Of a stretch of 17,376 bases of DNA, positions 15,581 through 16,113 are shown piece by piece. Below the pieces are notes generated by a model. The model searched no databases and had not been told where the DNA came from. It was given only the letters and a program-made list of their open reading frames with translations. Position 1 is the first letter of the stretch; each line of letters begins with the position of its first letter. The position numbers were made by a program, and so were the translations under genes. Origin of the DNA: a virus (taxonomy: Duplodnaviria > Heunggongvirae > Uroviricota > Caudoviricetes); the IMG/VR virus record IMGVR_UViG_2541047431_000017; one strand, written 5' to 3'.

Positions 15581-15781
15581 ATGAACGCAAAAATCAGATA
15601 CGGCCTGTCGGCTGCCGTTCTGGCGCTGATTGGTGCAGGGGCGTCTGCGCCTGAAATCCTCGACCAGTTTCTGGATGAAAAGGAGGTAACCACACCACAG
15701 CATACCGTGATGGTGCGGGTATCTGGACCATCTGCCGTGGAGCCACCCGGGGGGATGGTAAGCCTGTTATTCCTGGCATGA
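15581..15781 (+). CDS. endolysin (lysozyme R-type), N-terminal fragment; gene frameshifted
   Basis: MNAKIRYGLSAAVLALIGAGASAPEILDQFLDEKE matches the signal-anchor N-terminus of Stx-phage R endolysins as I recall them. After about residue 35 the frame no longer looks lysozyme-like. Confidence 0.6.
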   Translation: MNAKIRYGLSAAVLALIGAGASAPEILDQFLDEKEVTTPQHTVMVRVSGPSAVEPPGGMVSLLFLA

Positions 15782-16113
15782 AGCTGTCGAAGGAAAAATG
15801 CGACCGGGTTAACGCCATTGAGCGTGATAAGGCGCTGGCATGGGTGGAGAAAAACATCAGAGTGCCGCTGACCGAACCCCAGAAAGCGGGGATCGCGTCA
15901 TTCTGTCCGTACAACATTGGCCCCGGTAAGTGTTTCCCGTCGACGTTTTACAGACGGATTAATGCAGGAGATCGAAAAGGTGCCTGCGAAGCGATTCGCT
16001 GGTGGATTAAGGACGGTGGCAGAGACTGCCGTATTCGTTCAAACAACTGTTACGGTCAGGTATCCCGTCGTGACCAGGAGAGCGCGCTGGCGTGCTGGGG
16101 AATCGACAGATAA
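15679..16113 (+). CDS. endolysin, C-terminal portion in the -1 frame
   Basis: Frame open from 15679 (GNHTTAYRDGAGIWTICRGATRGDGKPVIPGMKLSKEKCDRVNAIERDKALAWVEKN...ACWGIDR). First ATG is at 15778, which is the ORF-track start. Contiguous lysozyme homology across the break point. Confidence 0.6.
   Translation, partial: KGGNHTTAYRDGAGIWTICRGATRGDGKPVIPGMKLSKEKCDRVNAIERDKALAWVEKNIRVPLTEPQKAGIASFCPYNIGPGKCFPSTFYRRINAGDRKGACEAIRWWIKDGGRDCRIRSNNCYGQVSRRDQESALACWGIDR

Follow-up and report, generated by a model that had tools for sequence, protein, structure and literature searches.

A one-base frameshift in the SAR endolysin gene of an Escherichia coli O157:H7 prophage contig, probably a sequence error

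Introduction

Described relatives of the endolysin analysed here include the signal-anchor-release (SAR) endolysin R of phage P21, for which an inactive (PDB 3HDE) and an active (3HDF) structure are on record, and RrrD of E. coli DLP12 (4ZPU). Both are homologous to it over residues 9-174 (E = 5.5e-18 and 1.1e-17, respectively) and distant in sequence, and both have a Gly/Ala-rich N-terminal signal-anchor together with a catalytic Glu that aligns with its E35. From what is known of this family, such an endolysin would be exported by the Sec system, after which a Gly/Ala-rich helix at its N-terminus would tether it to the inner membrane in an inactive state; depolarisation of the membrane by a pinholin would then release it, upon which the enzyme would refold, with E35, D44 and T50 forming the active site, and murein would be cleaved. 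By analogy, we infer that the regulation of P21 R, which works through repositioning of the SAR helix, carries over to the protein described below. The partner would be of the P21 type as well, since the holin of the locus falls in the P21 S family (PF04971).

Much closer in sequence is R of the Stx2 phage 933W (NP_049505.1), in which 171 of 177 residues are identical (97 %, six substitutions), and which has the same length, SAR N-terminus and E35-D44-T50 triad. Phage 933W reads GGAAGG at the site with which this work is concerned and, unlike the locus studied here, has no ydfR between S and R.

Here, we analyse a window of 17,376 nucleotides, which is the entire contig AVRE01000016.1 of the draft WGS assembly GCA_000462425.2 of E. 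coli B93. An original prediction, made from the letters of this window, had described its R gene as split by a -1 frameshift.

Results

A lysis cassette in a stx-less prophage

The locus belongs to a lambdoid prophage of E. coli O157:H7 strain B93 that carries paa and is stx-less. In addition to paa, which encodes an AcfC-family adhesin, this prophage carries hokD (listed coordinates 6199-6957 and 7293-7448) and a fimbrial pseudogene. Its late region is Stx-phage-like, with a tRNA bearing a CAT anticodon (tRNA-Ile in RefSeq), a tRNA-Arg (TCT) and a nanS-p-type sialate esterase (11921-12153 and 12677-14527), and there are no stx genes between the tRNAs and the esterase of the window prophage.

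A DUF1627 gene is interrupted at 3679-4990 by IS1203/IS629, of which CV261 and F3398 have copies with 100 % identity. The insertion at that position is missing from all of the best-matching complete genomes, in whose prophage the element is located elsewhere. One nucleotide is missing from an A run at ~11505, and the DNA methyltransferase gene there (10823-11880) is thereby split. This frameshift appears to be a genuine polymorphism, judging by the fact that it is shared with the complete genome F3398, where the gene is annotated 'frameshifted'; the gene is intact in CV261.

The lysis genes follow in the order holin, ydfR (DUF1327), R, ant, small ORF and Rz, which is common to many O157 prophages. 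The features of the cassette, including the parts into which the R gene falls as deposited, are as follows.

14973..15180, + strand: class II (P21 S-type) holin; private +A in the run 14977-14983 (A7 versus A6), frameshift after codon 3
15185..15530, + strand: ydfR (DUF1327), between holin and endolysin; private +T in the run 15374-15379 (T6 versus T5)
15581..16113, + strand: SAR endolysin R gene, complete; 533 nt versus 534, frame lost after codon 35
15581..15781, + strand: deposited 66-aa N-terminal ORF; signal-anchor (SAR) and E35, followed by 31 residues out of frame
15679..16113, + strand: -1 frame with lysozyme residues 36-177
15683..15687, + strand: lesion site, GAG GT versus GAA GGT in every reference
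16384..16953, + strand: antirepressor (Ant), intact, between R and Rz (PF10547, PF10549)
17107..17376, + strand: Rz-type spanin ('lysis protein'), 5' part, cut by the contig end (PF03245)

The deposited R gene lacks one A of codon 35

Direct translation from ATG 15581 yields MNAKIRYGLSAAVLALIGAGASAPEILDQFLDEKE, after which come 31 unrelated residues and a stop at 15779-15781. The -1 frame contains a TGA at 15676-15678 and is open from 15679 through the TAA at 16111-16113; its translation, KGGNHTTAYRDGAGIWTICRG...ACWGIDR, with GNHTTAYRDGAGIWTICRGATRGDGKPVIPGMKLSKEK ahead of the closing residues, is the remainder of the lysozyme. This agrees with the original prediction, which had placed the N-terminal 35 codons in one frame and the rest in a -1 frame open from 15679. 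The first start codon available to the -1 frame, ATG 15778 (Met67), opens a 111-aa ORF that has neither the signal nor any of E35, D44 and T50, and all that the 66-aa product retains is the SAR helix and E35, the lysozyme fold itself lying in the -1 frame. As deposited, the catalytic triad is contained in no single ORF, with E35 in the frame of ATG 15581 and D44 and T50 in the -1 frame; if the deposited sequence is true, the R gene would be a null allele.

A nucleotide comparison located the lesion. All 16 reference copies, including R of phage 933W, read GATGAAAAGGAAGGTAACC, where the window has GATGAAAAGG-AGGTAACC. Since every reference has one more base at this point, the lost base is assigned to codon 35 (GAA), one A of which is missing between window positions 15684 and 15685. 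Codon 35 changes from GAA to GAG, which retains the catalytic Glu, and the frame is shifted from codon 36 on. A one-base loss in an A or G run had been proposed; one base is indeed lost, at gaaaagg(a)aggtaacc, but it belongs to an AA dinucleotide and not to a long run.

Re-insertion of the A gives a 534-nt ORF encoding 177 aa, in line with the full length of about 177 aa that had been foreseen, and both its DNA and its protein are identical to WP_000992137.1 of O157:H7 strain 272, a product found in many O157:H7 genomes. The repaired protein matches PF00959 (Phage_lysozyme, T4-lysozyme-like muramidase) at 87.1 bits, against a gathering cut-off of 22.3 bits, over residues 33-167 and profile positions 2-125 of 125, which, like the 97 % identity to 933W R, is in line with the assignment to the R-type signal-anchor lysozymes. 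Among the deposited ORFs, the 111-aa ORF matches profile positions 34-125 only, and the profile search gave no Pfam match for the 66-aa ORF. Because the restored ORF is identical to WP_000992137.1 and PF00959 crosses the break, we read 15581-16113 as one interrupted gene and no chance pair of ORFs.

The repaired protein has an E35-x8-D44-x5-T50 triad, the E35 of which lines up with the region around the catalytic Glu in 3HDE. Its residues 8-24, GLSAAVLALIGAGASAP, align with the SAR segment of P21 R in the same structure; 65 % of them are Gly, Ala or Ser, and the Kyte-Doolittle 17-residue mean peaks at only 1.7. By these measures the N-terminal segment is weakly hydrophobic, as expected of a signal-anchor-release domain. 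Upstream lies a class II (pinholin-type) holin gene; its in-frame body scores 111 bits against PF04971 ('Bacteriophage P21 holin S'), and the references annotate it as a class II holin family protein.

Three private indels cluster within 707 bp

Compared with strain 272, window positions 14968-17376 (2.4 kb) contain 0 substitutions and exactly three 1-nt indels, namely +A at 14977 (holin codon 3/4), +T at 15374 (ydfR) and -A at 15684 (R). Over the full 17,376 bp, the differences private to the contig with respect to 16 reference loci amount to these three indels and one SNP at 2348. The SNP is the contig's only private substitution, as judged against the two references that cover the position (CV261 and F3398).

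All three private indels fall in 707 bp of the lysis region, which is free of substitutions; for three uniformly placed events, the probability of such close spacing is P = 0.005. The contig has 115 homopolymer runs of at least 5 bases, two of which are affected, both in the indel-bearing stretch. This tight cluster and the 2/115 affected runs suggest a local quality problem.

The accompanying holin lesion, which had likewise been reported, is present as the +A at 14977-14983. It lies directly behind the native start, ATG 14973, from which translation gives 57 aa of nonsense. Gene callers recover the holin body from an upstream GTG at 14953 as a 75-aa protein, WP_032293549.1, which is on record for AVRE01000016.1 only and is probably a database protein made by sequencing error. 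The +T splits ydfR into 73 + 49 aa, and the 73-aa product is again on record for AVRE01000016.1 only.

Two more specific origins of the lesion were considered and set aside. A consensus of mixed prophage alleles (GAA GGT versus GAG GGT) is unsupported, as all 16 copies, 933W included, are identical around the site, and no difference among the alleles examined occurs within ~30 nt of it in either direction. An assembly chimera switching between prophage copies at 14969 is not needed, because, with the exception of a single base, Z1504 (L006) continues to match across the junction.

The deletion is absent from complete genomes and recurs in one draft

In 926 complete E. coli genomes, 4931 places matched an 81-bp query with the deletion at its centre, but none of the genomes had an exact match to the deletion allele (best identity 98.8 %); the 40 best places listed are 82 bases each, corresponding to one gap. 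Longer queries of 901 bp and 861 bp gave best identities of 99.9 % and 99.5 %, which amount to the indels alone or to the indels and one base. The complete-genome queries did not find the lesion in lineage relatives of B93, and among phage records there is none whose encoded product is shifted at the R lesion site. Among ~15 billion proteins, the shifted products of R (N-terminal, 66 aa), holin (75 aa) and ydfR (N-terminal, 73 aa) are recorded for AVRE01000016.1 only.

The one other record of the same shift comes from E. coli DEC4F (EHV26942.1), a 66-aa lysozyme shifted at the same codon. It lies on a 5-kb draft contig and represents a different R allele, with the unusual substitutions S22P, F30L and L31P within ten codons, the comparison here being of proteins only. 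Loss of the same base in two drafts may have come about as a pipeline artefact or through a mutational hot spot.

On direct reading, the deletion also creates a perfect internal Shine-Dalgarno sequence, AAGGAGGT, at 15680-15687, and Glu35 is kept. If tRNA-Glu slipped by -1 from GAG to GGA, translation would resume with G36, N37 and onward, and a small amount of wild-type protein would be made. Nevertheless, a -1 ribosomal frameshift at this site, whether programmed or leaky, is very improbable, and we reject it. The shifted configuration is not conserved, with an in-frame GGAAGG in 16/16 references and no exact match in the 926 genomes; direct reading of 15674-15688 reveals no X XXY YYZ heptamer; and the alternative slip, AAG to AAA, would cost the catalytic Glu, the product reading DEK-GGNH. 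Furthermore, the Shine-Dalgarno-like AAGGAGGT overlaps the P site, whereas the corresponding element is 3 nt upstream in prfB and ~10 nt upstream in dnaX, and folding of the 80 nt downstream is no stronger than that of shuffled sequences (z = -0.59). Hardly credible, too, is a reading that would join B93 and DEC4F, namely that the A loss is a recurrent real event (GAA GGT to GAG GT) in which Glu35 is kept, AAGGAGGT is made and a rare -1 slip supplies a little wild-type endolysin. Were it true, prophage lysis would be under the control of a built-in throttle or phase switch.

Other split copies of R stem from a different run

Some 36 other contigs have an annotated 111-aa C-terminal ORF. We inspected ten loci, in all of which the same R allele is split into 66 + 111 aa (67 + 111 in one). 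The cause in nine of them is a reduction of G6 to G5 at the run equivalent to window 15749-15754; in the tenth, L013, that run has extra G bases. We therefore rejected the idea that these splits represent the B93 lesion, as the loss is a different one.

One of these cases could be resolved by comparing two assemblies of the same strain. In NZ_CP017251 (strain 86-24, NADC), the annotation marks three genes as 'frameshifted', those of the lysozyme, antirepressor and DUF6645 esterase. In NZ_CP038408, which is also 86-24, all three genes are intact and the lysozyme is WP_000992137.1. Over 2.9 kb, the two assemblies differ by six one-base homopolymer deletions and 0 substitutions. Since the second assembly of the same strain is intact, the G6 to G5 split in 86-24 is an assembly error.

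That callers output a 66-aa and a 111-aa ORF, here and in some other assemblies, might suggest two separate genes, encoding a small membrane protein and a signal-less lysozyme. This reading is refuted, and we give it practically no weight. PF00959 crosses the junction (residues 33-167), the E35/D44/T50 triad is divided between the parts, and the other 66 + 111 splits stem from the G6 to G5 loss, which in 86-24 is an assembly error. Homologues with two genuinely separate genes had been named in advance as the observation that would count against a split gene; instead, a single 534-nt lysozyme CDS is annotated in every complete genome inspected and is given for all 40 best matches listed (the region is carried by 1626 genomes).

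Sequence error or recent mutation

Taking these observations together, we consider it probable, at roughly two chances in three, that the missing A results from an error of base calling or consensus, made where ~0.7 kb are of locally poor quality in a draft assembly of a multi-copy prophage repeat. The nearby +A in the holin and +T in ydfR would be part of the same poor stretch, and the real gene would be intact, encoding an ordinary 177-aa SAR endolysin of the phage 933W / P21 R type. This verdict is a comparative inference and not direct proof.

The alternative is that B93 carries a real, recent and strain-private null mutation, in which R lost an A, the holin and ydfR each gained one base, and the cassette is dead, as in the ordinary decay or domestication of a defective prophage. 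It is what the deposited sequence shows, and the prophage has other, clearly real lesions that are shared with complete genomes, such as the methyltransferase frameshift, as well as the fimbrial pseudogene and the IS1203/IS629 insertion. Several points speak against an error: the rest of the contig is clean and free of other private indels, which argues against a sloppy assembly or one that is error-prone in general; a change from AA to A is no classic long-homopolymer miscall; and a mixed-copy consensus error is unsupported at the site, given the identical flanks. In principle, the involvement of three consecutive lysis genes could reflect selection against lysis, and a mutational hot spot could account for the loss at the same site in DEC4F, also a draft genome.

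On the other hand, three independent indels with 0 substitutions in 2.4 kb, in a sequence otherwise identical to its relatives, are very unlikely under neutral decay, and with the holin already shifted at codon 3 there would be no further selection to hit R. The deletion allele has no exact match in the 4931 copies from 926 complete genomes, and the identical signature is an assembly error in 86-24. We accordingly regard a real mutation as unlikely, while still deserving of consideration. Under either the error or the mutation reading, the lesion is an ordinary, already known kind of feature.

Discussion

The R gene of this prophage contig is interrupted by the loss of a single A, and a sequence error is the origin that we favour. 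It had been proposed that the lesion, together with that of the holin, would abolish phage-mediated lysis. This part of the original prediction is unsupported, considering that the contig is a draft, that its private indels are clustered in 707 bp with 0 substitutions and that 86-24 provides a precedent; from the sequence, a lysis defect as the consequence of the frameshift is doubtful.

The biological importance of the locus is very little. If the lesion is an artefact, its only use is to caution that clustered 1-nt indels occur in short draft contigs covering multi-copy O157 prophage regions and mimic pseudogenes, and the indel in the holin would already have given rise to a spurious 'intact' RefSeq protein, WP_032293549.1, by way of the alternative GTG start. 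If it is real, the prophage would be yet another cryptic, lysis-defective one; its strain has many lambdoid prophages with intact copies of the cassette, and no phenotype would be expected beyond one prophage unable to lyse the cell on its own.

Among known loci, WP_000992137.1 in strain 272 (NZ_CP018239, 1716388-1716921) sits in the same gene order of holin, ydfR, R, ant, small ORF and Rz; the window differs from it in lacking one A of codon 35, with the result that the deposited ORF ends after 66 aa. The comparison with NZ_CP017251 of strain 86-24 differs in two respects, in that the lesion there is the G6 to G5 loss and not the A of codon 35, and in that two assemblies are available for 86-24 and no second one for B93. 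The two loci nonetheless share the same R allele, a split of R that leaves ORFs of 66 and 111 aa, and several 1-nt indels without substitutions in the lysis cassette. With a signature so like that of the window, strain 86-24 offers a direct precedent for assembly error in this cassette.
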